Positions 14,201 through 64,000 of a stretch of DNA of 64,000 bases are shown here, piece after piece. Each line of letters starts with the position of its first letter. The first letter of the stretch is position 1. The translations under genes and the position numbers were made by a program. The notes beneath the pieces were generated by a model. It saw only the letters and a program-made list of their open reading frames with translations. It was not told the origin of the DNA and made no database searches. This stretch comes from Psammoneis japonica (taxonomy: Eukaryota), in assembly GCA_008632985.1 (NCBI GenBank), contig QPGO01000023.1, positions 341,266 to 405,265 on the forward strand, written 5' to 3'.

Positions 14201-14423
14201 CAATGTTGCAAGAGCTCGAGCGAACTAACTGCTGGCATGAGACGAGGCAAACTGAAACTAGCTACTACACTGGAGGTATACGTATTCCAGCTCTAACAGC
14301 GGTGGCCTCTAAGATTATTAGTTTCACACTGCAGCAGTTAAGGCCTCAAAACGCTTCCAAAATCACTGTCGTTGTGTCATAAGAGTACGAAAAGTATGGG
14401 CACCAACTCCACGTCGCGAACAT

Positions 14424-34617: not shown

Positions 34618-35134
34618 GGTCTCGTGATTGCAGCACCGCAACGCACGCTTCTTCACAGCATCATGGTCTCGCTCGTCGCGGCTAGTCGGTCGGAGGTAGG
34701 GCCCTAGGTGAACATTCCGTTCTTCATGTTGGAATATTTCAAATGTAGTTGCCGTTGAGCCGACAAACAACTTGAGAGGGACCCATAACCTCTTTTATAA
34801 TTAAATACAGATTTTATAACGATACATATTTGACTAGTATAATTATGCATATTATTTATATTTCTTAAGTAATTTATGTCAAGATTTTGTCCAAGGCCTG
34901 TCCTGTCGGTCTTTCTCCGGTAATTCTCCGAGACCGCACGTTGAAGCTTGACGAAGCATCACGTTTCAGGTTGTGTGGACTGTGTGAAGGCAGATGGCAG
35001 ATTGAAGATGGCAGAGTGAGCCTTTTTGTGGTTTTCAGCGGCGGGCTGAGCTAGGTTGCCATTTGCAATTGGCCATTTCATCCACGACATTTCTCAACAA
35101 AAAACGTCCCCAAGGTGCGCTTTCTAATTTCAAA

Positions 35135-38100
35135 ATGGCAGAGGGAATGATGGAACAGGAGCGAGAGTCATCTGATTTATCTCTCTTCAACGAGTCGAGA
35201 AACGATTGGGTACCCCACGAAGGAACAAGCACAATTTCTTCTTGTACGGGAGGAACGGATGACTCTTCAAGTGATGCAAATCATAACCCCTCCTCCTTGT
35301 CCTTGTTGAGCGACCAGTCAGATAGACGTTCAAGTGAGACGGATCTCCTATTCTCCAAGAGATTGAGTGGCGACCTATCTGATGAAGGGCAGCAACTGGC
35401 CCTTAAACCGGCAAAGTTTTTCTCAACAAAGCGCAAGAGCGAACGGATTTTGCCCGTTAGCAGATTGCGCTTTTCATCCGTGGGTCTTGTGGGTCGCGAC
35501 AAGGAGAAAGAAATTTTAAAGGCGTGTCTTAAAAGAGTCGCAGGTAATCAAGATGAAAAACAAAAGGGAAGCAGAGAACTAGTTCTCATATCAGGCCTCG
35601 CAGGGACGGGCAAGACCGCTCTTGCTTCTGCCGTTATGAAGCCTGTCGAGAAATTAGGAGGGTTGTTTGTGAAGGGGAAGTTTGATCTGTACCTACGAGA
35701 CGAGCCTTATTCGGGTATTGCAGCTGCGTGTCGAGAAATTTGTGGGAGCATTTTGCTTCTAAGGAACGACGAGTCCTTTGAGAAGATTCGCACCGAGCTG
35801 ATCGACAAGTTGGGTTCTGAGAACCTTCATCTTTTAATCAATATTGTTCCAGAGCTATCCGAAGTTGTCGGTGACGAACTCTTCACGGATGAAACAATGA
35901 AGACACAGAGCAGTGAAGAGACAAAGGCCCGATTGAATTACGCTTTCCGTATTCTCTTGCGAGTCGTTACCACACATTTCTCATCCTTGGTGATTTTGCT
36001 CGACGATATCCAATGGTCCGACGCTGCCACACTCAGCTTGCTGCAAGTTCTCATCGCGGATCGTGATAACCCAAGCCTCATGGTGATGGGTGTCTACAGG
36101 TCGAATGAAGTGGATGAAAGCCACCCATTGTATCGAGTCATTACCGAGTTGAAGCGAGCCGAAGAACAAGGTGATTTCAACCTATCAACAATCGAAGTTG
36201 GTAATCTGAATGTGTCACAGGTCAACGAGATCATTATGCTTGTCCTATCCATTGACGAGCCTGCCAAAACTCTCGGGTTAGCGGACGTATGCCACAAGAG
36301 AAGTCACGGGAATGTCTACTCTCTCCTTGTCTTTTTGGAGATGCTCCACGAAGAGGGACTACTGCGATATAGCATCGGAAGCTTCAGCTGGAGCTGGGAT
36401 GAGCAGACTATTCTCTCTGAAACGGCTGCTACTGCAAATGTTGTTGACCTGATGAAACAAAAGATTGAAAAGCTGCCCTCTTCTGTCAGCCAGCGCTTGT
36501 CCATTGCAGCTTGCCTGGGGTTTTCATTCGAGCCAAGAATATTGAAAAGTGTCTGGGACAGCATTGCTGGACAACAAGAGCAACTCCAAGAGGGACCTTC
36601 CGATGGAAATAGTGAAGAAGAGAATAGGTTGTGGTTTGCTCGTGTCGAAGAAGAGGGCTTTTTGGAAAAAGACGAAGACGGCACAGCTTACCGATGGGTG
36701 CATGATAAGGTACAGGAGGCTGCAATGTCACTTGTGCCAGATGTCGAGTTGCAAAGCTTGAAAGTGCATGTTGGAAAGATTCTAGTAAATGAGCTCGACG
36801 ACAAAGACGTGGATTCATACATTTTCACCATTGTGAATTTGTTGGAGGGAGAGGCCAAAGATGACGACGCTGAACGAATCCAGCTCGCCAAGCTCAGTTT
36901 GCTGGCATCGAAAAAGGCTAGTGAGTTGTCAGCATTCGAAAGTAGTGGGAGATACGCCACGATTGGTATTTTGGTGTTACCAAAGGATATGTGGTCGAAT
37001 CACTACGAATTGACCTTGGATTTGTATTCCACAGCTGCCGAGGCAGCCTGCTATCTCGGAAGCACGGAAGAACTACAAAAATGTTACGACGAAGTTTTGA
37101 ATCAGAAGGATCGCCCTTTGATCGATAAGCTGCGAGTCTGTCATGCAATGATCAGCTACCTAGGTGGTGCGCTGGGGAGGCCGAGCGATGCCATTGATCT
37201 ATTAGTGAAGATTCTTTCGCAATTTGGGATACGGTTTCCAAAACGAAAAGGTTCGAGGTTGGCGTCGACCATGTTAGGGATTCTCAAGGCTAAGAGAAAA
37301 ATGAATTCTCTTCAGCCAGAAGATATTACGAATTTGCCTGCAATGACTGATCCCGTGCACTTGGAAATTATGCGGCTTCTTGATCAACTCTTTCTTGCTG
37401 CGTATCTTGCGAAGAGTGACCTTATGCCTTTGGCAATTTTTGAAAGCACCAAGTTGACGTTAGAGAATGGTCTGAGTGAATACTCAGCGCCTACCTTTGC
37501 TTGCTTGGCGTTACTTATAGGTGCTGCCTTGGGGGACATGGAATTATCATCAAAAACCGGGAATTTCGCATCGTTGGCGATGCGCAACGTTGCGAGTCGT
37601 AATTTGGATGCGCGTGCAATCCTCTTTCTCGACGCTTTCGTCTTTTGCTGGACAGATCGCATCACAAGTATGGAGGCGCCATTACTGAAGGCATATGAGA
37701 CCGGGCTGGCTGTCGGCGACAACGAAAATGCATGCTGGGTAAGTTCGTTTCTTGTTTCATAGTCCCCGTACCCTATTCGTCAAAGCTCACTTCATCACCC
37801 CTTACGTGCTTGTATACAGTCTATTGCCCAATATATTGTTATTGGTTTTCAATCGGGTAGGGCACTTGAAACGGTCGAGGCTGATTGCAAGATCTATTTG
37901 GTCCAAATGCTCGAGTTTAAACGAGAGACGGTCCACACTGACATTTGCATCTATTCAGAAATGATCCAAAACTTGATGGGCTATTCGAATGGTGACCCAA
38001 CCAAAATGAAAAGTGAGCAATGCTTTGTCTCCCAAACCGATCATACAGTTCTCGGTGTCTTCTACAGCTGCCAATGCATTCTCTACATGTACTTTGGTGA

Positions 38101-45429: not shown

Positions 45430-46458
45430 TCATGGATATGGACGACCAAGGAGCCTAAAGAAGCGATCGTTCTGCTCTGCTTGGCGTCTCCGTAAGAGAA
45501 GAGCCTGCAACTCCAACCGAGTAGCAACATCTCGATCACTTTGAAGCGAGAGCAACGGATGTGAACTGACTCCCCTTAGATCGTCAATTCTCCCCAATGC
45601 CTGCGTTTGCAGAGCTGTCGGTACCCCTACTGGTGCCTGAAGGAGAGCCGCGGCACGACGTCTCGCATCAATCTCCACCATCCTTAGAGCTTCGACTTCT
45701 TCAAGACGACGTCTCGCACTTCCAAGAAGTACAGAATCTGGAGTCTCGTAGTTTGACAACATTGGTCGACCCACCAAGTCACTATCAGTACGTATTGAGC
45801 TCGCTTGAAAAGGAAGTGAGAGCTGGAGAAGCCGGGGATCAGATTGAATAACGGGACCAAGAGTATGGCGACCAACGGTAGCGCTGTACGTGTTGCCGGG
45901 GTGCGGCACTGTAGACCTTTCCCTACCCTGATCCCTAGCTCCACTCATGCCATCGCATAGACTAGGATCATCCCTCACAAACAAACGATGGAAGAAGACA
46001 ATCTCGTTGGGATAAATGTCACTGACGGTTCTTTTGAAGCCCCATCGATTTAGTTTCCGAGTAAAGGATAAGTACTTGGACTCTTTGAAGTAGCGAGGAA
46101 GTGCCTCCTTTACGAGACGTTCCCGCGACATGATGACAAAAGAATCGCCATCGGGGAGCCATCTTATTATATGTTGAAAGTCTTTGTCCGCAAGAAGCTC
46201 GTGGAGCAGAATCGGAAACGTTTTTGGTAGATGGTGTTTCCGTTCAATTTTTGGCTTCTCCTTCTCTACTAGACTGTCTTGGTCGTCCTTTTCGTTTGTT
46301 TTCTTGGTATCTTCTTCTCGATAATCATTCATAGCAGAACCCTTGGTTTCAGTGATTTTCTCGTCAGACACCGCCCACTGATCAGAGCAAGATGATACAG
46401 GGCTACACATCACAACTCCTGCGGCTTTTTCGGCGTTGTTGCGAAAGCCGGAAGACAT
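45430..46458 (-). CDS. Heat-shock-factor-type DNA-binding domain protein
   Basis: TFPILLHELL..IIRWLPDGDSFVI..LPRYFKESKYLSFTRKLNRWGFKR..FFHRLFVRD; start uncertain. Confidence 0.88.
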   Translation of the reverse strand: MSSGFRNNAEKAAGVVMCSPVSSCSDQWAVSDEKITETKGSAMNDYREEDTKKTNEKDDQDSLVEKEKPKIERKHHLPKTFPILLHELLADKDFQHIIRWLPDGDSFVIMSRERLVKEALPRYFKESKYLSFTRKLNRWGFKRTVSDIYPNEIVFFHRLFVRDDPSLCDGMSGARDQGRERSTVPHPGNTYSATVGRHTLGPVIQSDPRLLQLSLPFQASSIRTDSDLVGRPMLSNYETPDSVLLGSARRRLEEVEALRMVEIDARRRAAALLQAPVGVPTALQTQALGRIDDLRGVSSHPLLSLQSDRDVATRLELQALLLRRRQAEQNDRFFRLLGRPYP

Positions 46459-46929
46459 GTGTGCTTTCCAAGTTGCTTCGAGAACAACAAAATCAACAGA
46501 CTTTTCTCCACTAAATTTTGGAATGTCGTTTTTGGATTTGTGGGAGGAGGAAAGCAAATGACGGCGAGGCGCAAATCACATGGTGGTCGCGGATATTTTG
46601 CAAGATTGAGATGGTGATGACGAGAGGGGTTTCGTGGTCGCGAGTCTTGGACACTAATTGCAATCCCGTTTTCTATCTTATTTATGGTGTGAGGACAGAA
46701 AAGCTTGTCCAAATGACTGGTTTGACAATAATTAAGGGAACCCGCTCGTATCGTTTATAATATGAAAGTACGGTACAGTACAGGATGATTCCCAAAACGT
46801 CCAACAGATGACCAAGACATCCTGTCAACAGCCCTATTTCTGAACTTGAATGTTGAAGTTAGAATTGAACTGGCGCGAATCAATCGTACGAAAAATGTTT
46901 GGCCGCTTTATCGGCTTGTATTTGTCTTG

Positions 46930-47287: not shown

Positions 47288-48538
47288 TTAACGATGACCC
47301 CGTGACTGCCATGGTCTGAAGTGGTCCTCGGATTGACTTCTATCCGAAGGTGGTGGTTCCTGAGCGTCAGGATCAGACTGTCCGAGAAAGCTCAAAAAAT
47401 GGCTATCTGCTTCCATTTGATGCTGGCGTAGTAGTAGTGCTTGCGCATCAGCCTCCTCCAGCATGCGTTGCCTTTGTTGAAGCTGTGCAAAAACGGCAGC
47501 ATCAGTTGACAAGCCCGCATAGAGCCCTCCTAACAAAGTTGGATTTGTCAATGCCGGAGAGCGCAGTGGAGGCTGAAGTAATGCAAGGGCGCGCTGTCTT
47601 GCTTCCAGTTCAGCATTGAGAGACTGAACGCGTCGCATTCTGTCTGCTTCTTGCCCGGCGATGATTTCTCGTTCAAACAGGCGTCTGTCAAGTATTGGCG
47701 CTTGTGGCATCATCATGGCCTGTTGGGGAACTCGGAGGTGAGAGGGATGCGAAACACCACCAGCATGCGTCGCCGTTGGGAGGCCTGCAATGCCAGGAGC
47801 TTGTATTGGAACACCCCCTAGAGCTGTATCGGGGTTCTGCGAGCCGATAGACGGGGTTCGCTTTTTCGCTGCCTTCTTCGCCCCACTCATTTGCTTGCAT
47901 AGCTCTGGAGAGTCCCTCTTAAACAGAGGATTGTAGTATACCGTATCATCGGGGAAGACATTGGAAGAAATGCGTCGAAAACGCCATCTGTTCAACTTGC
48001 GAGTGAAGGATTCGAACTTACTCTCCTTGTAGTACTGCGGTAGCACTTCTTCCACGAACCGTATTCTTGATTTTATCGCGAAAGATTCTCCATCAGGCGC
48101 CCAACAAACAATGTCTTGAAAGCGTTTGTTGCGAAGAAGGTGGTGAAGTCTACCAGGGAAGTTGTTGGGCAAATCGATCTCCTTGTCTGTGCCTCCTTTC
48201 CTCTGCGTCTGCTCCTCGTCACCCTTTTCTTCCGACCTAGGTTCAGAAGCCCTGGCTCTTTCGGGAGGACTTACGCCTGAGCTGTGACTTGCTGATTTAG
48301 CTTCATCGTCAAAATGTGCCTTCTCTGAAAGCATTTCCCCAGACGAGCCCCATCCTGCAGCTACGCCAGGTAAATTCGAAATTGCCCGCCTGTACGACGC
48401 AGACACGTCCGATTCTCGGAAGGATGGCGAAACTCGGAGTCGCTTGTTCGGTCGGCTTTCATTGTCATCGTTCGATTCTGGCGACGAGTTCATATCAAAA
48501 CAACCCAGCCCAGTGTTTCTGCTCAGGGCCAATGCCAT
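47288..48538 (-). CDS. Heat-shock-factor-type DNA-binding domain protein (tandem paralog)
   Basis: NFPGRLHHLL..IVCWAPDGESFAI..LPQYYKESKFESFTRKLNRWRFRR..YYNPLFKRD. Confidence 0.88.
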   Translation of the reverse strand: MALALSRNTGLGCFDMNSSPESNDDNESRPNKRLRVSPSFRESDVSASYRRAISNLPGVAAGWGSSGEMLSEKAHFDDEAKSASHSSGVSPPERARASEPRSEEKGDEEQTQRKGGTDKEIDLPNNFPGRLHHLLRNKRFQDIVCWAPDGESFAIKSRIRFVEEVLPQYYKESKFESFTRKLNRWRFRRISSNVFPDDTVYYNPLFKRDSPELCKQMSGAKKAAKKRTPSIGSQNPDTALGGVPIQAPGIAGLPTATHAGGVSHPSHLRVPQQAMMMPQAPILDRRLFEREIIAGQEADRMRRVQSLNAELEARQRALALLQPPLRSPALTNPTLLGGLYAGLSTDAAVFAQLQQRQRMLEEADAQALLLRQHQMEADSHFLSFLGQSDPDAQEPPPSDRSQSEDHFRPWQSRGHR

Positions 48539-49189
48539 GGAGATTGGAAGGTTGTGCGTTTGTACTCTTTCTGTAGAGCTGAAGCAATGACTTTACCGGT
48601 CGTACGATGTGTCCGTCACATACACTGCGTCGCGTGTGGGCGGGGACAAAACAACTAAGATGAGGCAACGATAAATGTCGCACTCACGCGTGACCAAAAA
48701 ATAAAAAATTGGGAGACAGTTCTGTCCGTAAAAAGGGTAGTGCAACAGACAATTTTATTCGTCGTGAATCACGAATATAAATCGGTTGGGCCTTTTCATA
48801 CTTAGGAACAGAAAATTAACGTATGTTCGTATTATAAGGTTTATATGAAAAATTTCGGAGTAACCTATTTCATATCACTCTAAGTCCCGTTTTTTGCTTT
48901 ACTTAGGATATCGGAGAAATTGGACAAAATTGTGCACCTTAAATTTTATCAAGACTTGCTTATCGTTAAAAGTCGATTTCTATTTGACACACAACATCGC
49001 ACTCGTACGTTTTACGACTAGCGGCCTACGATCACGTGCTACGGTAGCACGGTACAGTGCTCCATGCACGACGACGTTGTGGTGTTCTTCGCTCGCTTCG
49101 CGATCGTCGGAAAAGTACGGAGAAGAAAAACGGAGTAATGATGACGTGAGCTGATATCTCCATAAGTAAACACGGAGAAGTCGGTGAAA

Positions 49190-49492
49190 TGCACATGCTG
49201 TTCGCAGTGTGTTGGGTGCTGTTGCTCAATTTCTGTGTTTTTTTCTGTGCCTGACATGACTGCAAATGTTTCAAACAAGGTTTTGCGTGAGGTGTGTCAT
49301 GCAGGCGCGCCCATGACTTGCTGGCAACACACTTGCCAAAGATGGCCCAAGCTCTTTCACACTGGCAGTGTTTTCTGCATCAAAAACAAAGCAAGCACAG
49401 CTTTCCTTGCTTGTCAGGATCATTTGCAACAATCAAGAAATTGACCCGATGTCTGCTTCAATCCATCCAAAAGTTTCAACCACAATGGCCCA
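49190..49492. mobile_element. Left part of an older TpA-depleted repeat interrupted by the copia insertion
   Basis: TA-free. Removing the element and one TSD copy joins ...FQPQWP to TCNAICDQ... in frame. Confidence 0.5.
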
Positions 49493-49737
49493 TGACAGGA
49501 TTTGAACAAGATTGTGGTTTGTCGCGCACAATTGTGTGTGCTCTCAGTTCCGCGCGCGTCGCGCGATGTGGCTTGCTTTCGAGCCACAGAGCTCACAAGA
49601 ATGATGACAGCAGTGCCGACATCACGACACCAGTCTTTCGGCTCCTGTGACGGTCTCTGCATGGAGACTCATCTGCCATTTAGACAGCAGTGAGGAGTCA
49701 TTGTTTTCTTCCACCCAGTCATCTTCATTTTCTGTCA
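49493..49737 (+). repeat. 5' LTR
   Basis: 245 bp, TG...CA with 6-bp inverted termini; 223/245 identical to 56102-56346 by manual alignment. Confidence 0.95.
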
Positions 49738-50549
49738 GATTGACAGTCTTGCTCTTCATTGTCCATTGAGCGTTCATCATCGTCATCGAGAAATTTTCGA
49801 CGACGCGCACCATTGGCAGTGGAAGCACACATCTACCTTCTTCACTGCTGAGCACTGGATTAAATCTGCATGTTTGGATTCATCCGACACCTCCCATCGT
49901 TGGAAGTGTTTGTTCAACGGACATTTGTTTGGCCAGGAACTCCTGAATTCTCAGACATCCGAGATTCTGGATTCCTTGCAGCGGATCCTGCCAACACATC
50001 CGCGCGCGTTCACGCGCACATGATGCAAATCCCTGACTCTGGCTCTGCTCCACGCACGCCAAGTCTACCGCCTCACATCTGCGCCGGATTGCTGGTCTTC
50101 TGCAGTCCTGCAGGGTCCACGAGGACAACTGTGAGAGGAAGCAATTCGTGATCACAGCCTGCGTTGGTGCGAGGGTGCATTTCCCACATTTGTTCATCCC
50201 TCCACAGCACCAAATTTGGCCAGTCTGATCGGGTTGTCCAACCGACATAAAATGAGATCGGCTCAGAGGTCTTGTCCACCTCTGGCTGGCTTGTCAGCAG
50301 GGGTTTTTAACCCGTTGCTCTGCTCTCAAGCAACCCAAAGTGTCGCCAGCTGCGGGTTCAGACGTGCCGGCACAACTCTGTGGACCGGATGGGAAGCTCA
50401 GCACTCAACTGCGAACAGGGTGTCACAGCCCGGTGCCTTCTGACTCTTGAGATAGTCCCAGACATCAAGTCAAGATTCAAGTCAAGTTTCAAGTCATTTC
50501 AAGCTCACCCTCCGACTCCAGCTGGTTCCGACATCCACCCAGTTGCAAC

Positions 50550-53500
50550 ATGGTTCTCACCAGGCAACAACAAATCAATGGCCTCGAGCACATCCTGGGC
50601 ACTGTTCTGAATCAAGCTGCCGACAGTCCATTGCGCTCCGCTCTCAACATTGATGGAACTGACTCGCATCAGGACCTTTTCACTTTTGCTCCGATGCAAT
50701 TGGATGCCCTTGTGTGCAACGACAGAACCAATCAAATGCCTTTGCCACGCTGCGTTGATCAGCCTGCACACAGCAAAAGCGCACGGCAGCACGGATGTTG
50801 GCAATGACCCTCAATTGTTCACACAAGAGGAGTTCACCAACTGTCGTCTTGGTCCTGAGCATGTGGCGTCCCTCTCCATGGGTGCAGCACCATCTGCTCC
50901 CACTCCTGGCTCATTGCCACCCAAACCATGTGATCCCGTGCATGACTTTAAACAAGGCATCAAACGTGACCCACTTGCCTTCATGCTTCTCAAGTCCAAC
51001 AAACAGTGGCACATGTGGCACACCTCCATCATCGCACAGGCCCACTCACAAGACATCGCACGCATTCTTGACCCGACGTACAAGCCCTCTGCAGCTGAGG
51101 ACAAGGCCCTGTTTGCTGAACAACAGAAGCACATGTTCGCTGCATTCAAACGGATTTTGCAGAATGACAAAGGCAAGGCTCTTGTTCGTCAACATGTCGG
51201 CTCCTCTGATGCTCAAGCAGTGTGTCATGACCTTTCCAAGCATGCCCTTGCTTCCACTCGCGCATCCCTGGAGTCCTCGACCCTTCTCACGTACCTCGCC
51301 ACTGCTCGCCTTGGTGATGGCACCTGGAAAGTTTCCACTCATGCCTTCATGCTCCACTGGCAGGACCAGCTCCGCAAGTGTGAAGCTCTCATTCCGGGTG
51401 CGGACCATTTTTCTGCTGGGCAGAAATGTGTCATGCTTGAGAATGCCGCACATCCCATCGAGGAACTCTGTTTGGTGAAGAATCAGGCCGATCAGTTCCG
51501 CGTGCAGAATGGAAAGGGACTCTCTTACAAAGAGCACTGTGGACTCCTGCTTTCTGCTGCAGCACAGTGCGACAGCACGTTCGCCCCCAAGATGGCTCCT
51601 TGCGCTCCGCGCCGTGCCATCTGTGAGCATGACCTGGTCCCTGACGACCCTGACGATGATGCATTCTTCGACATCGACAGTGATGTTGACGTCATGCAAG
51701 CTTGTGCTGCACAGACCCGCGGCAACTCCCTCACCAGGGAACAATGGTGTCGCATTCCGACGGACCACCAGTGCATTTGGGACACCTCACCCCAGTCCAC
51801 TGGGGCCATCATTCTTGGCTTGCGCACCGCCCACACGGGCAACTGCCATGACTCGATGGCAGTCAACCTGCATGACCTCCGCATTGGCAGTGATGGCGAT
51901 GTCAACTTGTCCGCCAACACTCATGATCTTGCATCAGCCTTGGCACAATCCGATGCTGCAGCCAGTGCCAACCCCATTCTGGCCCATCTCACCAGGCACA
52001 AGCCTCTGCCACCCGGCGACTTGCAACGTCTCCTGGCACCTGAGCGGCCTCCTTCCGCCCGTTCTGGCGAAAAACCACCCGGCTCTGCACCTTCGGTCCG
52101 CTCCGACATGAAGCCCCATGACACTGACATTGAGATCAACGGCCACAAATGCCGTTGCGTCAACAACCACAATGTCATCTGCTCTGCCTCGACCCACAAG
52201 TCAACTCGCAAAGGCGCTCTCGTGGATCGTGGTGCAAACGGTGGCATTGCTGGTGATGGTGTTTGTGTCATTGCCCGCACTGGTTGCCAGGTTGACGTCC
52301 AAGGCATCAACAATCATCAACCAGTCGACATCCCCATTGTCACTGCCGGTGGTGTCATCCACACGCAACGCGGCCCTGCCATTGCCATCCTTCACCAGCA
52401 CGCCTGCACTGGAAAGGGGAAGATGACACACTCTTGCAGCCAACTCGAGTGGTGCAAACACGATGTCAATGATCGGTCCATCAAGGTCCCCAACGGTCTG
52501 CAGTGCATCACCACCATTGATGGATGCGTCATTCCCATTGACACCAAAGCTGGCCTCCCATGCATCGCCATGCGCCCGCACACCGACACCGAATGGGACA
52601 CTCTGCCGCATGTCATTCTCACTGGTGATGACACATGGGATCCATCTGTCCTTGACCACCAGTTCACGGACAATGAGACGTGGCATGACGCCGTGTCTGA
52701 CCTCCAAGACAACCCGACTGCCAACCTCTTCGATGAGTTCGGCAACTGTCATCACCGCCATGTCATCAACAACGCCATGCTCACCGACTCCGTCCTTGAT
52801 GATCATCTGCTCCCGACGTCTGATTTCTTCTACAAATGCCATGAGCATGAAGTCAATCCCAAGGATCCTGACTTTGAGTCCCTCCGCCCCTGCTTTGGCT
52901 TTCTCCCAAAGGACACTGTCCGCCGCACTTTCAATTGCACGATGCAGTGCGCCCGCATGCCAGCCAGCACACACCTGAAAAAGGCACACAAATTGCCCAA
53001 CCCAGCTCTCAATGTCCACCAACACAATGAACCCGTTGCCACCGACACGGTCCACTCCGACACCCCTGCCATTGACTCTGGCTGCACCAGCGCTCAGCTC
53101 TTTGTCGGCATGGAATCTCTCATCACTGATGTGTGTGGCACCAAAACTGACAAAGAATTTGTCAACACCCTCGAAGACAACATTCGCAATTGCGGTGCCC
53201 CGTCCAAGCTCATCAGCGACCGTGCCCAGGTTGAGATCAGCAACAAGGTTCTTGGCATCCTTCGTGCCCTCTTCATCTCTAGTTGGCAAAGCAAGCCCCA
53301 TCACCAGCATCAGAATTTTGCTGAATGCCGCTGCCAAACTGTGAAGACCATGGCCAACACCATCATGGATCGCTTCGGGTCCCCGGCTTGCACCTGGCTG
53401 CTTGCCCTGATGCACATGTGTTTTGTGCTCAACCACACGGCGTCCGCCAAGCTCCACTGGCGCACCCCCACCGAGGTGCTGTCCGGCTCTGCTCCTGACA

Positions 53501-56114
53501 TCAGCCCGCTCCTCCACTTTCAATGGTGGGAACCCGTGTGCTGCCACCTGGATGATTCCGACTGGCCGTCAGAATCCTGTGAATTACGTGGTTGCTTCGC
53601 TGGCATCGCCGAACACGTTGGTCACCAAATGACGTTTAAGATTCTTTCTGACGACACTCAGAAGATTCTCCACTGTTCCAACGTGCACTCCGCCCGTGAT
53701 CCGTCTGCTCCAAACCTGCGTCTTGATCCTCCTGATGAGGAATCTGCTGACTCTGTCAATGAATCCCGCCACAACTCCAAGAATTCGCCAGATTCACCAG
53801 ATTGGGAGGCGATCAGGATGCCAAAATGCCGGTCTTTGACCCCAAGGACATCGTGGGACGCACATTCCTCATGAAGCCACAAGAGGATGGACAACGCCAC
53901 AGAGCCCGCATTGTCAAAGCTGTTGAGGACCACGACTGAACAATTGGAGGCAATCCTGAACTGGTCAAGTTCATTTGCTCCGTCAACAATGACGAACACG
54001 AGGAAGTCCCAGCCTGCAATGACATCATGCACCACATTGAGCAAGAAGACGAGGACACAACTCTCTGGAAGTTCCGACGCATCACATCCCACGAAGGACC
54101 ATTGCAACCCCATGATCCCTCTTGGAAAGGCTCAAGCTACAACATCATGCTTGAATGGGAGAATGGGGAGATCACGTCCGAACCCCTTGCCATCATTGCC
54201 AAGGACGACCCTGTCACCTGCACCATCTACACGCATGAGCATGGCCTTCTGGAAACCGAAGGATGGAGACGTTTTTGCAAGACAGCACTTCGTCAGAAGA
54301 AGTTGTTCCGCATGGCCAACCAAGCCAAGTTGCTCTCCTTTCGTGCCGCGCCATGATGCAAGTGCGGGCACGAAGCACCACGGAACTGCAAGCATGCCAT
54401 GGCCCTTGATGAGCGCAATGACAACCGCAAGTGGGGAGACGCCACGGACCTCAAGATGACCCAACTTGATGAGCACGAGGTCTTCCATGACTGCGGACAC
54501 CACAAGGACTCCAGTGCTCCATCAGGACACAAGAAGATCCGGGTGCATCTCGTCTGCGACGTCAAACATGACGGACGGCACAAAGCAAGGCTTGTCGCCG
54601 ATGGACACCTCACAGACGTGCCCATCGACAGTGTCTGCTCTGGAGTGGTGTCCCTCCGTGGCCTGCGAATGATGATCTTCCTGGCCGAACTCAATGAACT
54701 AGAGACCTGGGCCACTGACATTGGGAATGCCTGCCTTGAAGCTGCAACCAAGGAGAAACTGCACATCGCAGCAGGCCCCAAGTTTGGCAACCTGGAAGGA
54801 CGCATCCTCGTCATCCACAAGGCCTTGTGCGGACTCCGCAGCTCCGGTCTCAGATGGCATGAACGCTTTGCCGATTGCTTGCGTGCCGAAGGCTTCTTCC
54901 CATGCAAGGCCGAACCCGACATCTGGCTGCGCAGGAATGGTGACCACTGCGAATGCGTGGCAGTGTGTGTGGACGACCCAGCCTTTGCCATGAAGGACCC
55001 CCAGGTTTTTGCAGACACCCTCGTGGAGAAGTGCAAGTTCAAGCTCAAGGGCACTGGACCATTGGAGTTCCATCTTGGCTGCGACTTCACCCGTGACCCA
55101 GACGGCACCCTGTGCCTTGCTCCCCGCAAGCACATTGAGCGCATGGTTGACAACTGCGCACGCCTCTTTGGGGAGAAGCCCCGCACTGATGTGCTTTCAC
55201 CCCTTGACAAGGGTGACCACCCTGAACTCGACACCTCAGAATTGCTCAAACCAGATGGCATCCACCAACTCCAATCCTTGATTGGATCCCTGCAATGGGC
55301 CGCATCTCCAGGCCGCATTGACATCACTGCGGCTGTCATGTCCCTGTCCAGCTTCCGTGCAGCGCCCCGTCAAGGCCACCCAGACCGCGCCAAATGCATC
55401 TGCGGATTCCTCTCCAAGATGCATCATGGTGCCCTTCGAGTGCGCACCGAGGAGCCTGACCATTCAGACCTTCCCAAGCCCGTGTGCGATTGGGCTCAAT
55501 CTGTGTGTGGGGAGGTAGAAGAGCTTCTCCCACAAGATGCACCCGAGCCGCTCGGCAAGTTCGTCACCACCATGCACTGCGTCAATGCGAACTTGTTCCA
55601 TTGCATGCTCACTGGACGCTCTGTCACTGGCATCCTCCATTTCCTCAACAAGTTTCCGGCTGATTGGTTCTCTAAGAAACAAGCAACAGTCAAGACTGCT
55701 GCGCATGGATCCGATTTTGTTGCCGCAAGGACATGTGTCGAGCAGATCATTGATCTGCACATCACTTTGCATCACCTTGGCGTTCCCATTCGTGAAACAT
55801 GTCACATGTTTGGGGACAACAAGTCGGTTGTGGACAGTGCCACCATCCCGCACTCCAAGTTACACAAGCGACACACCACCCTCTCATTCCATCATGTGTG
55901 CGAGGCGATTGCCTCGGGATTCCTCAAGTTTCACTTTGTCGAAGGTTCCCGCAACCCGGCTGACATCCTCAGCAAGCATTGGGGTTGCTCCCAAATCTGG
56001 AACCTCCTTCGTCCTCCAATGTTTTGGAGCTTCAACCCCGAGGCTTTCAACCAATCCAACTTCGAATCTGTTGCTGTTGACCCCTCAAGCAAACTGGGGA
56101 GTGACAGGACTTGA
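50550..56114 (+). pseudogene. copia gag-pol pseudogene (gag, protease, integrase, RT, RNase H)
   Basis: gag MVLTRQQ...FKQGIKRD; protease ALVDRGANGGIAG; integrase VATDTVHSD, LISDRAQVE, QNFAE; RT HKARLVADG, TDIGNAC, KALCGL, CVDD; RNase H FGDNKSVV, NPADILSK. Several frameshifts and a TGA at 54354. Confidence 0.93.
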
Positions 56115-56346
56115 ACAAGATTTTGGCTCATCACACACAATTGTGTGTGCTCTTAGTTCCGCGTGCGTCAAGCGATGCAGTTTGCTTTCAAGCCACAGAG
56201 CTCACAAGAATGACAACAGCAGTGCCGACATCACGACACCAGTCTTTCGGCTCCTGCAACGGTCTCTGCATGGAGACTCATCTGCCATTTAGACAGCAGC
56301 AAGGAGTCATTGTTTTCTTTCACCCAGTCATCTTCATTTTCTGTCA
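56102..56346 (+). repeat. 3' LTR
   Basis: 245 bp, preceded by the PPT and followed by TSD GCCCA. Confidence 0.95.
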
Positions 56347-57976
56347 GCCCACGTGCAACGCCATCTGCGACCAAGCATGTGATCTTGAGTGGTTGTCAAG
56401 GAAGTGTCAAAATTTTGTGTGAGTTGTTGAGAAGCCACAAGCAGGTGGATTGCAGATCCTGTGACCACACACATCACAGCAGCTCCAACTGAGCTCAGAG
56501 CATGGCTTGAACAGCTGCTCACATTGTCTGGAAAGAGATGAGTGTTTTCAAGAAGCAGCCAGTGCTTCTAAAATCAAAGTCAAATTGTTTTGAAATGGTG
56601 CTGCCAGCGGCTGACAGGTGAAGTGACAATCATGGATCATGGCTGACATGAGCCTCTCATCTGGTGCAGATTGAACACTGTTCATCAAAAGGCAGCAGCC
56701 CAAGAAACACTGTCATCTGCCACATGGAAGAATGTCCAACATGAGCAACAGAAAAAGTTGACAAACACCAACCAGCAACATTGAAGCCCAAAACCAGGTT
56801 TTCATCCAGAGCTTGTTGTGTGCCGGTGGTGGCTCTCTCTGCAGTGCTCTGAACAGTGAAAATCCTTGCTGCTTCAGGCAAACAGCTTTGTCAAAGAGCA
56901 ATGTGTCAAAACAGCATGGGCCAAGAAGCTTTCAACAGCCAATTGCAGCTGGACACCACAAGCTCAAAGAGCTGGGCTGTGTGCACAGACAGATTTGTTG
57001 GCAGCGGCAACTTCCAAACCTTTTGGACCTTTCCAGTCATCAAAGCATGCATCTTGCACACTTGCAACTTGCAGAACGGCACTGAGAGTTTTGCAGCAGG
57101 TGGCAATGATGCCAAGAGTCCAGAGCACCAGACTGGCAAGCTGCAAGACTGCAATGAGTCCAATGAGCATGGGTCATGTGAATGGTGGAACATCGTTGCA
57201 AGCATCAGGAGTGTGTTGGAGCATCTGGAGCATGTGGGAAATGCAAGAAACCCAGAGGTCAAATTGTCAAAGAGAAAATGCTTTGACTGCCAATGTGGTG
57301 GATCTGGCGACACCTTGGAAATGAAAACACATTTGTTGCCAATCTCCTCGCTGACCTTCTTTTGTCTCACTCTTTGGAGTGAATCATCTGGTTTGCACAA
57401 ATTGTTGCATTGTGGCATCATCAGGTGCCTGTTGTGTCACAAAATTGAAGCTCATTGAGGACTTCCAGGGAAAACCACAACCACCACAAAAAAAGGACAA
57501 GTGTGAAGAGCAGCGCAAGAAACCTCTCAGAGGATTCCTTTTTGGCAACTTTGACTTGTTGGCTCAACAATCCGTCATCCAGCCATCTGGTGAACACGCA
57601 GTGCTGATGGAGCAGGGTTGTGCACAGTGTGTTTTTGTTGGCACATGCTCTGTTGGACAGCTTGCATTGCGGTGCTTTTCATTTGGCTTCATTTTGGACA
57701 TGGTGGCCTCTTTGTTCATGGCCTTCGAACAGTTGAGAAATCCTCCTTTTTGCCAACAATGATGGGAGAGGGAGAAACTTTTCTCTTGCTCTTGGCCACT
57801 TGTTGTCATCAAAATGGCAGGCAGTTGGGGCAGAAAACAAGCTGGAGCTCCTGTGTTGTGGCTGTTTGCTGCAAGGTGCCAGCACCGAGCTCCAATGTTT
57901 TGACAAAGTGTTTCATTCTCATCAACAATGATGACACAACTGCAGCATGCATGCAGACAAAAGGTTGTTTTGTCAC

Positions 57977-58373
57977 GCCCTTTGTGACATTTAAAGGCTG
58001 TGACACGTCGCCGTGACACATTGGCTCTTGTCAGCAGCTGTGTGTTGCACTCCTCCCCATGTGTCACGCGTCCATGCGGCTCTTTACTAACGTGCACTGA
58101 CACTGCACGGTTTTGGCGGAACAGTGTGGGTGCGTGCGAAGGAACACACAGAACTGCACAGAGTTTTGCGCGTTCGACAGTGATCAACGTTGCTGCAGAC
58201 AACTCCCACACAGGTTTCGAACCCCTGGCCTCCTGCCCAATGGTCATACGATGAACCACTCCGCCATGAATTCACAGTGCAGCACGCATGCAGACAAACG
58301 CCCTTTGTGACATTTAAAGGCTGCAACACGTCGCCGTGACACATTGACTCTCATCAGCAGCTGTGTGTTGCAC
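57977..58373. repeat. Direct repeat pair (about 74 bp; about 57977-58050 and 58300-58373)
   Basis: ccctttgtgacatttaaaggctg(tg/ca)acacgtcgccgtgacacattg(g/a)ctct(tg/ca)tcagcagctgtgtgttgcac. Confidence 0.85.
58203..58272 (-). mobile_element. tRNA-derived (Pol III A/B box) sequence; SINE head or tRNA pseudogene
   Basis: The minus strand reads TGGCGGAGTGGT (A box) ... GGGGTTCGAAACC (B box) at tRNA-like spacing; no convincing acceptor or anticodon stems. Confidence 0.6.
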
Positions 58374-60519
58374 AACAGCTGCAGCAACAAGAATGATGAC
58401 AACAACAGCGCACTGCTGCAACAGAGGAGCAGGCCAATGTTGGTGCCACTGGTGACCCAGCTCAAAGCAGTGTTGATGCACGTGGGGGATTGCAGAGCAG
58501 CAGCAGCAACGATGACAAAGAAAGTCAAGCATCAGAAACTGAGGCTCAAAATCCACAGCCATGGTGGATGCAGCAAAACAACATCATCTCAAATCAATTG
58601 GAAGAAAATGATGGGAACAACTTCAAGTTTTCTGGAATGTTGCATGAGCGTGTAAAAAATTGACCAGAGTCAAGCAATCAGAGAGGTCAGGAAAGGTTTC
58701 CTGCAATTGAGAGGAAAAGATTTCATGTGTCGGCATGACATGATGCCTGACACTGCAAAAGACATGCGGAAGTGGTTTTGCAAGTGCCATGTCTTCATGT
58801 GATGACTGGACATTGTGACACCAGGGTGGAAACCAAAACAAATGTCAGGGTGCAATGGGAAGAGCTGCGCTGGTGTCCACATCCAAGATTGCGACCCTTT
58901 GCTTGTGCACTCTGTGCCAAAAAATGCACTTTGAACTCACCAATTTAACGAATCTGCCATGGATGTAAAAACATCAACACACAAATGAGGCTGCTGGTGG
59001 TGTTCCTTGAGATTGGTGGTGACAGCACATGCTCAGCTCTCATCATCTGCAAGTGCTTGCTCAAGGGCTGGAGGCCAGCTTTCCTGGGGAGTTCTGTTTG
59101 TTCCCCTGCCACCTTGGCTGGAGAAGTGGAGCACAGACAAAATGGTCATGGAGTGGATGTTTGAATGCACTGATGGGGCTGTGAGCCCTTCTGCAGTTCA
59201 AGGTGTCGCTGAAATCCTTCAACGGCATCATCGTGCTTGTCACAAGCCGCCACAGTTTGACAAACAGTTTCTTAACTGCCAAAGCCAGCCTCTGTCTGCA
59301 GACAAGGATGCAAGCTGGGTGGCCTGGTGAACAAGGAAGAATCTCAAAGCATTCCCCATTTGCAACTCAGAAGACAGGTGTGGCCCCATGTTCCAGGTGA
59401 CAAGCTGCCAGCCAAAATGTGCTGCAAGAACACTGCTGTCAACTGCAGCCAAACAGATTCAATGTGCATGCACGACAGCTGCACTTGAATGAGATCACAT
59501 CTGTTGATTCATCACACAACAAGATGCTGAAGTGGCTGGCCAATTAGAAAGGACAGCAATTGCGTGAGCTGCTGATCACCACATGGAACAAGTGCTTTGA
59601 ATTGTTGATGGCCTTTTTTGCTCTGTGTCCAAAAACCATGTTGAGGTGCAAGCAGCATTTTTGCAGCTGGCATTGAAAGGCTTCAATCCCAATTTTGTTT
59701 TCTTGGATGTGCCATTGTGAGGTTGCAGGAAACAGCAGAGCCCCTGCACAACTGAGGTGTTTTCCAGCATTGCTGAGTCTTCAATCACTGCTGAAAACGG
59801 CAATCTTCCAGCTCTTGAGCTGCAAAGCAAGCCAGAGTGCCTTTCTGCAAGTGAGAGCACAATTGTGGCAATCAATGTCCTCAAAAATTCCATGCATGAA
59901 AGTGGCGCAACTCACACCACATCTCTCTTGAGACGCTGAGCATGGTGTCTTTGGTGATGACACAAGGGAGAAAACTTGCATCATCACACTTGGGTTGCTT
60001 GCTTGTCCAAACATCCTTGTGATTCATTTGAACAAAATGAAAGACAAACAAGAGATTGCGCTGCATTTGCAGAGACTTTTGTCTCAGGAAGACACCGCAT
60101 TTGTTGGCGGCAACATCAGAAATGACCTTGCCAAAGTGTGCTGTTGGCCGCTGAAGCACAACAAGTGCGCCTGAGCTCCCGATCCTCTTGAGCCCAAACC
60201 ACTGCACAGAGCAGCAGTCAACAGAACCAGCAACCAACTCAGATGAATTGCCACATCAATCATGCGAGATGAGCCACCTTGCCCCACATGAGTCACACCC
60301 GCACAAAAAGAATCCAACGGCAATGATGGCAACCATCAGACCATTGGCCACATTTCAGCATGCACAGTGTTTGTTGTTTCCATTGTTGCACAATCAAAAC
60401 CTGCAATTTGGGCTGTTCCCACCAGTGCCCATTGTTCGTGCCAAGAAACAACAAAAAATGGTGTGCCGGAAGTGTCGCTGACAGACATCCGAGATGGGGA
60501 GTGCACTCCCTTGTGTCAG

Positions 60520-63500
60520 ACAGACTGGCATGGACAGCACAGAGAGATCCGATGATCTCTCCTTTGCTCACTTTCTTTCTCATCTAGCACACGATTGTCA
60601 TCTGTCCCAGACATCCATTGGATTGTCCCAACACTGCCAGTCTGCAAGGTTGTGAGCAGCAGTGCACTGTTCCTCTTCCTCTGTGCTCCTCTGTTGCAAC
60701 GCCCACTGCGCGACTTGGCAATTTTTCTTTGTTGAAATTGTTGTCATTGTCACAGCTGTTTTTTTTGCCTCTCAATTTGTGATCGGATGATGACCACCAT
60801 AGAACACATGCCAGAGCTCTGCATGGGAATTTTGATTTTTTCCCGTGCAACCACAGTGAACAAAGCTGCAAATGCCATCGATTTGACCAAGATCAAGTCG
60901 GTGCGGGTTGAATTCTTCAAACTGCACAACCTCCCACCCGATGCCCATTGTCACCTGAATGCTCTGTGCTCTGACAAGATGCCTGTCCCTGAAGATCTTC
61001 TGGATGGATTTGCTTTTCAAGGACTCAAGAGCAATGCTGTCGCTGTTCCCCCCGTCACAAGATTGTTCAGAACCTTGTCATCCCTCAAGCTGTGCTTGCC
61101 AAAGATCTCACATGGATTGGACCGATCATTGAAAAGGCTCCTCTCTTTGTGACCACTCCCCAAGGCTCTCTGGTTCATCTGAACCTCAGCACTCTTCAGA
61201 AGACCATGATCAAAGCAATTTCTGAGAACTGGGATGCCATGATGATGTGTGTTGAGACCCTGCGTCTCCACATTTCTCCTGGTTTTCGACACTGTGATTG
61301 TTGGGACGATGTCTCTGATGTTCCGTGCCCAGACTTGCAGCCCACTTCAAGCCCTGCACCTCCATTGGCTGCTGCTCCAGGTGCTGCCCCTGAAGACTTT
61401 GCCAAGGCCTTGGCCACTCATCTGCCTGGTCCAAAACAATTTGAGCAAGCTGCGGCCAACGCGTTGAACACGTCTGCTCCTCCTGTGCCATCTCCCACAC
61501 CATCTGCCTTGACCACCACTGCTGCAGCTTCTTCCTCAACCACTGCCAGTGCCACACACACCTTCAATCCGAAAGGACTTCCCAAGGATGTGCTGGCTTG
61601 CTGTCAATGCAAGGAAGCCGGGAAGGCAGTGTCAGGGAAGTCACCAGTGCCCCACAAGTCTGGCAACCTGCATCATGAAGATGGTGCTGAGCGCCCAATC
61701 CTCACTGATGGTTCTCCATTTGTCCATTGCATTGATTGGGATGCCAAGTCCTTCCTTCATGATCCTCTCACTTGTGACGACATCTCTCCTCAAGGAATCC
61801 GTGCATGGCACACTGCTGCAACCCAACAGGCCTCCGCTTGTGGCACCCACATGCACCCTCTGTGGTGTTTTGTCAAGGACAGTGGAAACTGGGGTTTCAC
61901 CTGTGGCAATGATCCAACAGATGATCTCCCACTCTGGATGACAGCACCACTTGACAGAATGAAGTTGACTGTCTTCCAGCACATTCAGAAGGTTGGAATT
62001 TTTCTGGCGGACTCTGAGCACCCTGACATCATTCATCAATGCTGTGGAGATGGACATGCTGCCATCAAGATGATCTTCTTTGACATCTCACCAATTTGGA
62101 TGAAGCATCCACATGAGTTGATCAAGAGCCATCTGCACCAAAACAATCTTGCAATTCTTGGATGCTGTGCTCTGTTCAGAGACCACCTCCAGCTGCGGGC
62201 AATTGTCTCCAACGTTGATGCTTCTCTTGATGACCCTGGAGAGCCAGACATTTTTCTTGGCAATGCTTGCTGTGGAGAATGCCTTCACCGTAAAACAGTG
62301 GACGCCTGGGAAGACAAGAACAAGCAACACAAGTTCGCCCAGAAGAAGATTGTTGAAACCATCAGTGTGATTCTCAAGGAACAGGATGGCCCTGCTCTTT
62401 GTGTCAAGGATCCTCCCAAATGCCCTCCACATTGTCTCCATGACTCGCCCAACCCTTCTCTTGCAGCTCCTGTTCGAGGTCTTGACTTGCTTCCTGCAGA
62501 TGAGGTGTCTGCTCCACCTCCAGTTGTTGAGGAGACTCCAATCATGGAACCTGACCCTCCTGCTGCAGAAGAACCCATGGATGCCATGGAGCATTTTGTG
62601 AATGAACTTGGTGCTGTGGACATTCCTGCTGGATGATGAAGCACATGCACCACATGGCATCTGCAAGGCGCGCATCTACAGGACCAAGTTTTCACCTGCC
62701 ATTGCACAGACTCATCCGTGTGTGTTCCATGAGTGCCCTGCATTGAATGATGCTGAGCACCTGCACACCCACCCCACTTGGTTCTCCCAGTTTCTTCAAC
62801 GTGATCGGCATGCTCGCAATGCACTCAAGTCTGACATGGCCAAGAAGGATTTTTCCTGGGGCCATTGTTGCGTTCGGGCAAACAATGCCACCCATCTTCA
62901 TCCCATCCAAAACCTCATGCAAGTGGGGCAACTGTGAAAGAGGGTCCATCCGACTTGTTGCCTTCCACTGAAGCACCTCTTTCCCGTGTGTCATTGGGTG
63001 GGGAATTGCACAAGAATCCCAAAGTTTGTGACCTCTTTGAACAAGAATTCCAGCATGACATCTGTCCTTCTGGCGCTGGTGCATCCAGCCAATGTGGGCC
63101 TGTTGAACACTCACACTCAACTGTTGAGAACGCGATTCGTGCGATTTTAATTGGCGCCAACCTCCCGATTCGATTCTGGCCCTGTGCCTTTTGCCATTGC
63201 CTCCGCATCAAGAGTGCCACTCCTGTGAAAGATCAAGATGCAGCACCCATCACTCTTGCCACCAGAAAGGTCAAAGATTTTAGCACCCTGAAGACTTTTG
63301 GATGTCCAGCATGGTCCAAATGTTCCACTGCTTGTTCTGCTCCTTTCCGGACCAACTCGAAGAAAGGTGTCTTCCTTGGCCACCTCCCGAACACCCTGAA
63401 GAATGTCATGTGGAGGGATCCTGAGACTGACAAAGTCAAGACGGCCAAACATGTGCGCTGCAATGAAGGTGTGAATGATCTATTTTTTGGATCAACTTCC

Positions 63501-64000
63501 TCCAAATGCCATCCATTTGCAATGTGTGGAGAGAATGGTCAGCCTTTTCCGGCTGAAACACAGGACACAACTGTGCCCATGTTTGCTTCTTCATCAAATC
63601 CTTTTGCTGCGACCATTGCATGCACCATGAAACATCCTCACAGGGATCCTGCCTGTGGTTTTGGATTTTCCCAGTGCACCCTCATGGGCCGTGTCTGTGT
63701 TTCGGAAATCAAGCAGTGCAGTCCTGCGGCTTCCTTGTTCTCCTCTCTCCATGCTGCTTGCAACAAGATCATGGGTGCATGTGTCATCTTCATCAATGAG
63801 CGTGAAGTTTTTGCTCCACAGGATGCTGAGGAAGCCTCATCTCAGGTCTTCCATGTGACAAAATTCTGACCTTCGAGATTGCCTTTGCACCGGAACGACA
63901 TCTGGACTCCCGCACTCTCAACAAAGCATTTGAGGAAGCAGAGCTGTTTGAACCTGATTCCATGGAGGATGACTCTCACGCACCTGAACTTGCCTTGGAG
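60520..64000 (+). mobile_element. Second, different Ty1/copia element (gag-like region + integrase core/C-terminus), hypermutated, runs off the window end
   Basis: Integrase GASSQCGPVEHSHSTVENAIRAILIGANLPIRFWPCAFCHCLRI...LKTFGCPAW...SKKGVFLGHLPN...KHVRCNEG; Tyr-free 514-aa gag-like ORF at 61092-62636; PBS-like GGTTGTGAGC at 60648. The 5' boundary is tentative. Confidence 0.8.

Follow-up and report, generated by a model that had tools for sequence, protein, structure and literature searches.

The two long terminal repeats (LTRs) of a dead Ty1/copia retrotransposon in a diatom-like genome differ at five places by a reciprocal exchange, TG in the 5' LTR against CA in the 3' LTR, and these swaps prove that the LTRs changed independently, at the DNA level and once two copies of the LTR sequence existed. 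Across the element the conversion of TA to TG or CA is nearly complete, and that of CG to TG or CA forms a weaker second layer. We propose that a TpA-specific process changing A:T to G:C converted the integrated DNA copy, independently in each LTR, a reading that we hold to be probable; action on the chromosome rather than on reverse-transcription intermediates is likely to much the same degree. The first-pass annotation had taken the LTR pair as a sign of mutation after integration. The independent change of the LTRs as DNA is upheld here; the timing after integration is likely but goes further than the swaps themselves.

The element and its LTR pair

The window, i.e. the whole stretch of 64,000 nucleotides that was analysed, contains two 245-nt sequences at 49493..49737 and 56102..56346 (both forward strand) that align without gaps at 91.0% identity. 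They are regarded as the 5' and 3' LTRs of one insertion because of their TG...CA ends and because the same pentamer, GCCCA, flanks each. The left copy of this target-site duplication (49488..49492, forward strand), read directly, is identical to the right copy (56347..56351, forward strand); a 5-bp match has a chance of 1 in 1024. As the duplication is intact, the element was inserted once. A sensitive self-comparison found no further copy of the LTR or the element within the 64-kb window, and searches for the exact LTR patterns gave no match in metagenome, genome and viral contig collections.

The internal region (49738..56101, forward strand) contains 20 TA, an observed/expected ratio (o/e) of 0.06, with ratios of 0.67 for CG, 1.71 for TG and 1.50 for CA and a GC content of 55%, against 47-49% in the flanks. 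Comparison with 240 homologues by tblastn showed the element to be co-linear over 50550-56111 with homologue residues 1-1885; the homologue polyproteins are approximately 1850-1900 aa long and carry RVT_2 in their C-terminal part. Two large frames remain on the forward strand. The 1087-codon open frame at 50611..53874 corresponds to the gag-protease-integrase part, matched no Pfam family and is no longer functional because most of its conserved Tyr residues have been replaced. The Pfam search found no rve domain in this frame upstream of the reverse transcriptase (RT), for which the loss of Tyr and Arg residues is the probable reason. The 585-codon reverse transcriptase/RNase H frame at 54357..56114 contains zero Tyr and was recognised as RVT_2 (PF07727; residues 53-266, about 54513-55154; E 5e-21; 75.8 bits, the cut-off being 31.6), and its catalytic YVDD motif reads CVDD. 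A purine run, GGGGAG, lies directly upstream of the 3' LTR; inspection by eye recognised no primer-binding site 3' of the 5' LTR. The family is highly abundant, with 11,198 contigs of run X1 matching at 80% likeness or more and a summed depth on the LTR of 66,000-94,000, compared to about 57 for the unique contig.

The LTRs differ at 22 positions, comprising 20 transitions and 2 transversions. Each of the five swaps is an adjacent double change with TG in the 5' LTR and CA in the 3' LTR, located at LTR positions 28-29 (window 49520-49521/56129-56130), 77-78 (49569-49570/56178-56179), 113-114 (49605-49606/56214-56215), 156-157 (49648-49649/56257-56258) and 199-200 (49691-49692/56300-56301). Both letters differ every time, and the hybrids TA or CG never occur at these sites. 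Five differences at LTR positions 32, 34, 63, 69 and 89 are CG in the 5' LTR against CA (4) or TG (1) in the 3' LTR, one at position 53 is CA in the 5' LTR against TA in the 3' LTR, and the remaining six are at positions 9, 22, 26, 70, 80 and 219. On realignment, all of the counts given in the first-pass annotation (22 of 245 differences, five swaps, five CG differences, one CA versus TA and six others) proved correct. The 5' LTR has 14 CG and 1 TA and the 3' LTR has 8 CG and 2 TA; classed by site (5'/3'), there are 8 CG/CG, 4 CG/CA, 1 CG/TG, 5 TG/CA, 0 CA/TG, 1 TA/TA and 1 CA/TA. The loose end of another copy reads TA at position 53. When 22 changes (20 transitions and 2 transversions) were scattered randomly over the LTR, five swaps arose in 1 of 200,000 trials and three or more in 489.

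The swaps run in the same orientation in 5/5 cases (two-sided p=0.06), an aspect absent from the first-pass annotation. All nine G/A differences between the LTRs have G in the 5' LTR (two-sided binomial p 0.004), and among the TA- or CG-type changes of the 3' LTR 9/10 are antisense (binomial p 0.02).

A contig of the public run (record 1, 7263 nt) leads from the unique left flank into the 5' LTR as far as its 64th nucleotide, with 0 differences, and covers swap 1 and the differing positions 32, 34 and 53; this check concerns the 5' LTR only, and the assembly may have been built from this very run. No LTR site occurs among the 40 of 1685 variable places listed for the read contigs.

The Kimura two-parameter (K2P) distance between the LTRs is 0.098 for all differences and 0.030 for the six other differences. 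LTR dating is thus inflated about 3.3-fold in this element, as had been anticipated in the first-pass annotation, which held that it would overestimate the age.

Loss of TpA in codons, blocks and relatives

Ordinary 1-kb segments of the window have o/e ratios of about 0.4-0.9 for TA, 1.0-1.4 for TG and CA and 0.7-1.3 for CG, and a GC content of 44-53%. TA- and CG-depleted blocks occupy about 600-3800, 9822-14225 and 49168-64000, and the host-gene regions beside them (TA o/e about 0.4-0.9) are spared. The signature is confined to these discrete repeat blocks. Their edges can be placed to within a few bases and fall together with the borders of repeats. On the left of the element there are 12 TA in 49001-49167 and none in 49168-49680. 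The 325 nt to the left of the 5' LTR (49168..49492) are the remnant of an older TA-free repeat that resumes to the right of the 3' LTR, and the element is therefore nested within it. More run contigs, with indels, match 49200-49492, which indicates that the left flank is itself repeated. The older repeat DNA on the right (56352..64000) has a TA o/e of 0.04 and a CG o/e of 0.31 (0.06-0.31 over the older depleted blocks) and includes the remains of another copia-like element (60993-63866, forward strand; SH3_retrovirus domain, E 3.9e-8). It also contains a short internal duplicate (57941..58373, forward strand), the two copies of which (57941-58050 and 58278-58373, 82% identical) show two further TG/CA swaps and both keep TTTAAA.

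Genes in the depleted DNA are hard to recognise. Loss of TA removes the stop codons TAA and TAG, and the depleted DNA is consequently full of spurious long open reading frames (ORFs) in six frames; 46 ORFs of at least 80 aa overlap 7.8 kb of it. A Pfam search of 50 ORFs matched one (the SH3_retrovirus domain right of the element) and none in 600-3800 or 9822-14225, a phmmer search with a 341-aa frame of a depleted block against 1.84 billion proteins returned 0 hits, and no terminal repeats were found in the other depleted blocks. These other blocks lack recognisable genes, and no non-retroelement carrying the signature was identified in the window. The host genes have a diatom-like character. 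They are long and contain few introns, the best of the named relatives of a P-type ATPase among them come without exception from diatoms (36-40% identity), and there is a tandem pair of HSF-type genes, a family expanded in diatoms.

The polarity of the change can be read from codons. Columns with a Tyr consensus were taken over the whole polyprotein wherever 30 or more of the 240 homologues could be aligned and agreement was 60% or more. Codons at the 51 Tyr-consensus columns are now 5 TAC, 27 TGY, 1 TGG, 13 CAY, 4 Phe and 1 Leu; among the 46 that read TAY, TGN or CAY, 41 have become TGY/TGG or CAY. Arg-consensus codons comprise 43 retained CGN, 4 AGR and 18 TGN/CAN, giving a CGN decay (Arg-to-Cys/His/Gln) of 18/61. 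The RT part has kept none of its 22 conserved Tyr, and the RT frame has 0% Tyr, compared to 4.56% in 120 homologues. The Tyr conversions divide into 28 TG (sense strand) and 13 CA (antisense strand; p=0.03), and the two kinds are interspersed along the element (21 runs versus 18.8 expected). A runs test and a 500-bp dispersion test revealed no long strand-coherent TG/CA tracts, the depleted blocks being similar to ordinary DNA in this respect. A neighbour-base rule for the choice of strand was tried and failed, as the sense strand is preferred in ATAC as well as in its reverse complement GTAT. Surviving TpA is 8-fold enriched in TTAA and absent in ATAT.

TA o/e lies at 0.52-1.02 in 47 of 50 metagenomic relatives. 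Among the 49 relatives that were scored, three show Tyr replaced by Cys/His with few or no Arg-to-Cys/His changes: L001 (12/23 Tyr kept; sense:antisense 7:4), L029 (1/19 kept; 7:9) and L032 (2/17 kept; 7:6). In relatives with strong CpG decay (L035 and L046-L049) most Tyr are retained, and no more than one has become His. TpA loss and CpG decay are hence separable, because the CpG-decayed relatives keep most Tyr and because L029 and L032 lose TpA without CpG loss.

L029 and L032, two copies of one family, align gaplessly over 1722 nt at 94% identity. The 99 differences between them include 20 TG/CA swaps (10 per orientation), 25 TA-versus-TG/CA and 8 CG-versus-TG/CA differences and 12 transversions; 65/99 are located at TA-derived sites, and contexts other than TpA and CpG account for only 8 A/G differences. 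Intact CG number 103 in L029 and 102 in L032. Where TA survives in this pair, the ancestral letters are still visible. Two unmutated relatives, whose LTR pairs differ at 20 and 4 sites, show 0 swaps.

Origin of the swaps and competing explanations

A swap could descend from TA or from CG, and its ancestor was judged here from quantities rather than read from a family consensus. The first-pass annotation had explained each swap as one ancestral TA (or CG) resolved on opposite strands in the two copies, an explanation that now has the support of codon polarity, of the swap number expected under CpG decay and of the fit of an independent-conversion model. Likely the swap ancestors were TA, because 41/46 Tyr codons were converted compared to 18/61 Arg CGN codons; per site, TA is estimated to be favoured several-fold to more than ten-fold over CG, and one swap of CG origin is possible. 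A model in which every TA was converted independently in each LTR fits the pair with 11-12 ancestral TA and a conversion of 82-92%, implying an ancestral TA o/e of 0.6-0.7 for the LTR, which falls in the range of the 47 relatives at 0.52-1.02. The same model applied to L029 and L032 (N=68) predicts 18.3 swaps, 20.6 and 7.0 single conversions and 3.9 intact sites; the observed numbers are 20, 19 and 6, and 5, and the implied ancestral TA o/e is 0.68. Conversion was therefore independent both in the two LTRs and in the two paralogous environmental copies. Had 68% of the conversions preceded LTR duplication, a condition that RNA editing would impose, only 1.6 swaps would be expected.

In the mechanism that we propose, the element would have arrived with a normal TpA content, after which a TpA-specific A:T-to-G:C process would have converted nearly every TpA of the DNA copy. 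Conversion on one strand would yield TpG and on the other CpA, and with every site converted on its own and each LTR independently of the other, the same ancestral TA resolved on opposite strands would appear as a TG/CA swap. A separate and slower decay of CpG would be superimposed and could account for most of the CG-versus-CA/TG differences. Action on the integrated chromosomal copy is argued from these quantities and from the precedent of Bigelowiella natans, because the window yielded no non-retroelement with the signature. The chemistry may be adenine deamination to hypoxanthine, and the process may be targeted and defence-like, by analogy with the one reported for B. natans. Several observations stand against this best explanation. 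The 5/5 swap orientation has a two-sided p of 0.06 under a site-independent chromosomal process and is unexplained, as is the 28:13 sense excess, which a strictly symmetric process on double-stranded DNA does not predict; the sharp block edges would also fit elements that arrived already mutated.

Changes made before the LTR sequence was duplicated explain the data poorly. The first-pass annotation argued against ADAR-type RNA editing and reverse-transcriptase error, and rightly so, as such changes would be common to both LTRs and cannot yield swaps. ADAR editing at the RNA level, fixed by retrotransposition, was rejected on two counts, namely that 13/41 Tyr conversions are antisense and that five sites were resolved in opposite ways in the LTRs; the swap count fits essentially all TA conversions being independent per LTR, and RNA editing is therefore excluded as the main cause. 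Decay of methylated CpG, with each swap derived from an ancestral CG, would account for the reduced CG of the element (o/e 0.67) and of the older blocks (0.06-0.31), for the five CG-versus-CA/TG differences between the LTRs and for Arg-to-Cys/His/Gln at 18/61 CGN codons. However, a CpG-only model (8 intact and 5 singly hit CG) predicts 0.39 swaps, with P(>=5)=5.5e-5, and CpG decay cannot make Cys or His from Tyr codons, of which 41/46 were converted. Relatives with decayed CpG keep their Tyr, and L029 and L032 combine 20 swaps with only 8 CG-versus-TG/CA sites and about 100 intact CG. This reading is close to refuted and we give it hardly any credence. An artefact of assembly or polishing in a repeat of very high copy number, or of base-calling at modified bases, is very improbable. 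Polishing could mix copies of so abundant a family and the read-contig check reached the 5' LTR only, but that contig runs from the unique flank through swap 1 with 0 differences over the first 64 nt, the swap sites are never TA or CG hybrids, the signature is also present in independent metagenome assemblies, and the sharp borders of the blocks coincide with those of the repeats.

The remaining alternatives accept specificity for TpA. In the retroviral strand-transfer scheme, each LTR can be assigned to particular reverse-transcription intermediates. Editing of single-stranded DNA intermediates before integration, APOBEC3-like but by a TpA-specific adenine deaminase, would leave the 5' LTR, derived from plus-strand strong-stop DNA, edited in the sense direction (TG) and the 3' LTR, derived from the minus-strand LTR template, edited in the antisense direction (CA). 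It predicts exactly the orientation that is seen in all five swaps and in the nine G/A differences with G in the 5' LTR, agrees with the antisense excess among the 3' LTR changes (9/10, p 0.02) and would explain why the depleted blocks stop at repeat borders. Nevertheless, we consider it improbable. It requires almost exclusively minus-strand edits internally, yet sense changes predominate or are about equal in all four elements (28:13, 7:4, 7:9 and 7:6), and if RNA editing is added to explain the internal sense changes, conversions common to the LTRs follow and about 1.6 swaps are expected. At position 53 the rule is broken by a TA-to-CA change specific to the 5' LTR, the 3' LTR and the loose copy end both being TA. 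Furthermore, about 90% conversion on both strands in one cycle far exceeds known cDNA editing, and the intermediate states of L001 (about half converted) and L029 (patchy) fit gradual accumulation rather than editing in a single cycle. The equal orientation of the swaps between L029 and L032 (10:10), the interspersion of conversions along the element (21 runs versus 18.8 expected) and, as far as it is described in the preprint cited below, the action of the B. natans process on non-retroviral integrated DNA also speak against editing of intermediates. A different chemistry on the chromosome, which is nested within our preferred explanation, would be a symmetric modification at the palindromic TpA with T-to-C/A-to-G mispairing as a by-product, similar to 5mC at CpG, with TET/JBP-type thymine modification or an adenine methyl mark as candidates. 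TpA is palindromic and the two outcomes are about equal over the four elements (49:32), T-to-C on one strand is indistinguishable from A-to-G on the other, and in the window TpA loss and CpG loss share the same blocks; the TTAA/ATAT context dependence could arise from any enzyme that reads sequence. Against it, L029 and L032 lose TpA without CpG loss, so that the processes are separable, and the only published account, in the text available, proposes an ADAT2-like deaminase, without proof. We regard a modification of this kind as unlikely.

Significance and comparison with known systems

A natural process that changes A:T to G:C at one particular dinucleotide and is limited to invading DNA is so far on record once, in a 2026 preprint on one rhizarian alga. 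The same footprint, at saturation on retrotransposons of the diatom-like genome and also present in 3/49 environmental relatives, suggests that this is no curiosity of a single species; whether protists in general defend their genomes in this way can be tested directly with the genomes that exist. Both the LTR pair and the L029/L032 pair provide a clock-free, quantitative test of per-copy independence, which the main text of the preprint lacks. It is tentatively possible that diatoms carry an active, transposon-directed TpA mutator of the B. natans kind, a genome defence resembling repeat-induced point mutation (RIP) with the opposite polarity (A:T to G:C). If true, the system would be old and widespread in SAR, or a heritable symmetric TpA mark would act as a second 'CpG', and the strand pattern of the LTRs (sense in the 5', antisense in the 3') would reflect how the machinery is loaded on the element. 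In practical terms, domain searches miss genes decayed in this way, and a natural DNA A-to-G editor would interest the base-editing field.

A search of the full-text literature, diatoms included, found no account of a TpA-only signature besides the B. natans preprint. In the diatom CoDi paper (PMC2806351), a search by terms led to unrelated passages only, and the passages found in PMC4504042 hold only nucleosome-related remarks on dinucleotides. The phenomenon was already described in the 2026 preprint and so is not categorically new. What is new here is the different eukaryotic lineage, the retrotransposon, the saturation, the internal quantitative test of independence and the matching environmental copies.

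Fungal RIP resembles the present case in being a hypermutation of repeat or foreign DNA that inactivates transposons by transitions, on both strands and independently in DNA copies. In RIP, however, as treated in the RIPCAL account, C changes to T mostly at CpA, TpA is the product and AT content rises, whereas in the present element TpA serves as substrate and GC has gone up to 55%. RIP itself was rejected as a candidate on the grounds that TpA is lost rather than gained and that GC content is raised. APOBEC3 is likewise a deaminase-type hypermutation that kills retroelements, and LTR-specific differences are possible with it; in the source material available, its product is G-to-A on the plus strand only, via deamination of minus-strand C, unlike the A-to-G and T-to-C at TpA on both strands described here. 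ADAR hyper-editing of double-stranded RNA shares the A-to-G change, but RNA edits carried into cDNA would be sense-only and would be the same in the two LTRs. Decay of CpG in methylated transposons also generates TG and CA from a palindromic dinucleotide and is present here as the slower second layer; it differs in that it cannot remove TpA or Tyr codons and in that the two processes occur separately among the relatives.

The closest likeness is to B. natans. In mutation-accumulation lines of this alga, 231 mutations were seen in an integrated NCLDV and a virophage, of which 230 were A-to-G/T-to-C, all at TpA; RT and DDE domains are over-represented in its TpA-depleted clusters, which have gained CpA and TpG (bioRxiv 10.64898/2026.01.13.699255). 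The same source advances an ADAT2-like deaminase as a hypothesis without proof and notes that ADAR prefers a 5' U; in its main text, CpG and LTRs do not appear and strand is used only for product assignment (bioRxiv 10.64898/2026.01.13.699255). As far as that account goes (Mettrop et al. 2026), the two cases agree in that only TpA is targeted, that TpG or CpA results according to the strand, that the bias is towards GC and that the change is confined to foreign or repeat DNA. They differ in the host, which looks like a diatom here and is a chlorarachniophyte (Rhizaria) there, and in the target, here an LTR retrotransposon. Depletion is near saturation in the present case (TA o/e 0.02-0.06), compared to 0.45 in the B. 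natans NCLDV region described there. Unlike in that account, the same blocks here also lose CpG, and the LTR pair shows independent conversion.

Strand asymmetry and sequence context of the TpA losses

At all five of the swaps, here defined as LTR sites with TG in one copy and CA in the other and read as ancestral TA, the 5' LTR (49493-49737) of the dead Ty1/copia retrotransposon carries TG and the 3' LTR (56102-56346) carries CA. The G/A differences between the two LTRs place G on the 5' LTR side in nine of nine cases, and where CG in one copy is matched by CA or TG in the other, it is the 5' LTR that has retained CG (5/5). A site-independent process does not account for this strand asymmetry. 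As a predictor of the strand chosen by the mutator, i.e. the proposed process converting TpA to TpG or CpA, a simple neighbour-base rule failed.

A total of 64 TpA survive over the TpA-depleted repeat blocks of the window (600-3800, 9822-14225 and 49168-64000). Among these survivors, the TTAA context is enriched 8-fold and the CTAA/TTAG contexts 2-fold, and none of the 64 lies in an ATAT context. The same TTTAGA is retained in the 5' LTR and in the 3' LTR. The contexts of the surviving TpA suggest a mutator with a preference for particular neighbouring bases.

Incomplete conversion in related copies and in a block between host genes

Partial conversion was seen in metagenomic relatives of the element. 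In L001, a metagenome locus (1029-2712) holding an approximately half-converted copy, 12 of the 23 Tyr codons are kept, seven have become Cys and four His, with kept and converted sites interspersed; the kept codons are TAT in eight of 12 cases, and TAC has mostly become TGC. TpA loss is patchy along L029, which has 5, 5, 6, 1, 1, 0, 6 and 2 TA in successive 250 nt intervals, and 19 of the 25 TA that differ between L029 and L032, two copies of one family, are retained in L029. These observations hint that the exposure of L029 to TpA loss was regional and not uniform.

A partly depleted block of approximately 1.6 kb (15600-17200) is located between host genes, and has 1-5 TA per 200 nt compared to the ~12-15 expected from base composition and the ~5-9 of ordinary DNA in the window. 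Its CpG loss is mild, its edges are fuzzy and a gene search of the block found none recognisable. Possible readings of the block are an insert that is young or short, and spreading.

Two adjacent genes with HSF-type DNA-binding domains (45430-46575, minus strand, E 6.5e-20; 47288-48592, minus strand, E 1.4e-21) have a repeat block directly to their right, and their TA content is normal as far as its edge. A 918-codon plus-strand frame (35006-37762) with a domain match to AAA_16 / NB-ARC-like STAND ATPases may encode an immune-type NTPase in a protist genome.

Spurious reading frames and abundance of the superfamily

Because TA has been lost, the TAA and TAG stops are gone from 49000-56800 and the other depleted blocks, and 46 ORFs of at least 80 aa therefore overlap within 7.8 kb in all six frames. 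All 11 long frames checked in the depleted blocks lack Tyr entirely, and their Cys and His contents are high. Gene callers would predict too many genes in such blocks.

In X1, a public sequencing run that is possibly the assembly's own data, 11,198 contigs match the element (49200-56101) at 80% or above, and transitions are seen at 1422 variable places and transversions at 217. The superfamily of the element is a large share of the genome sequenced in this run.
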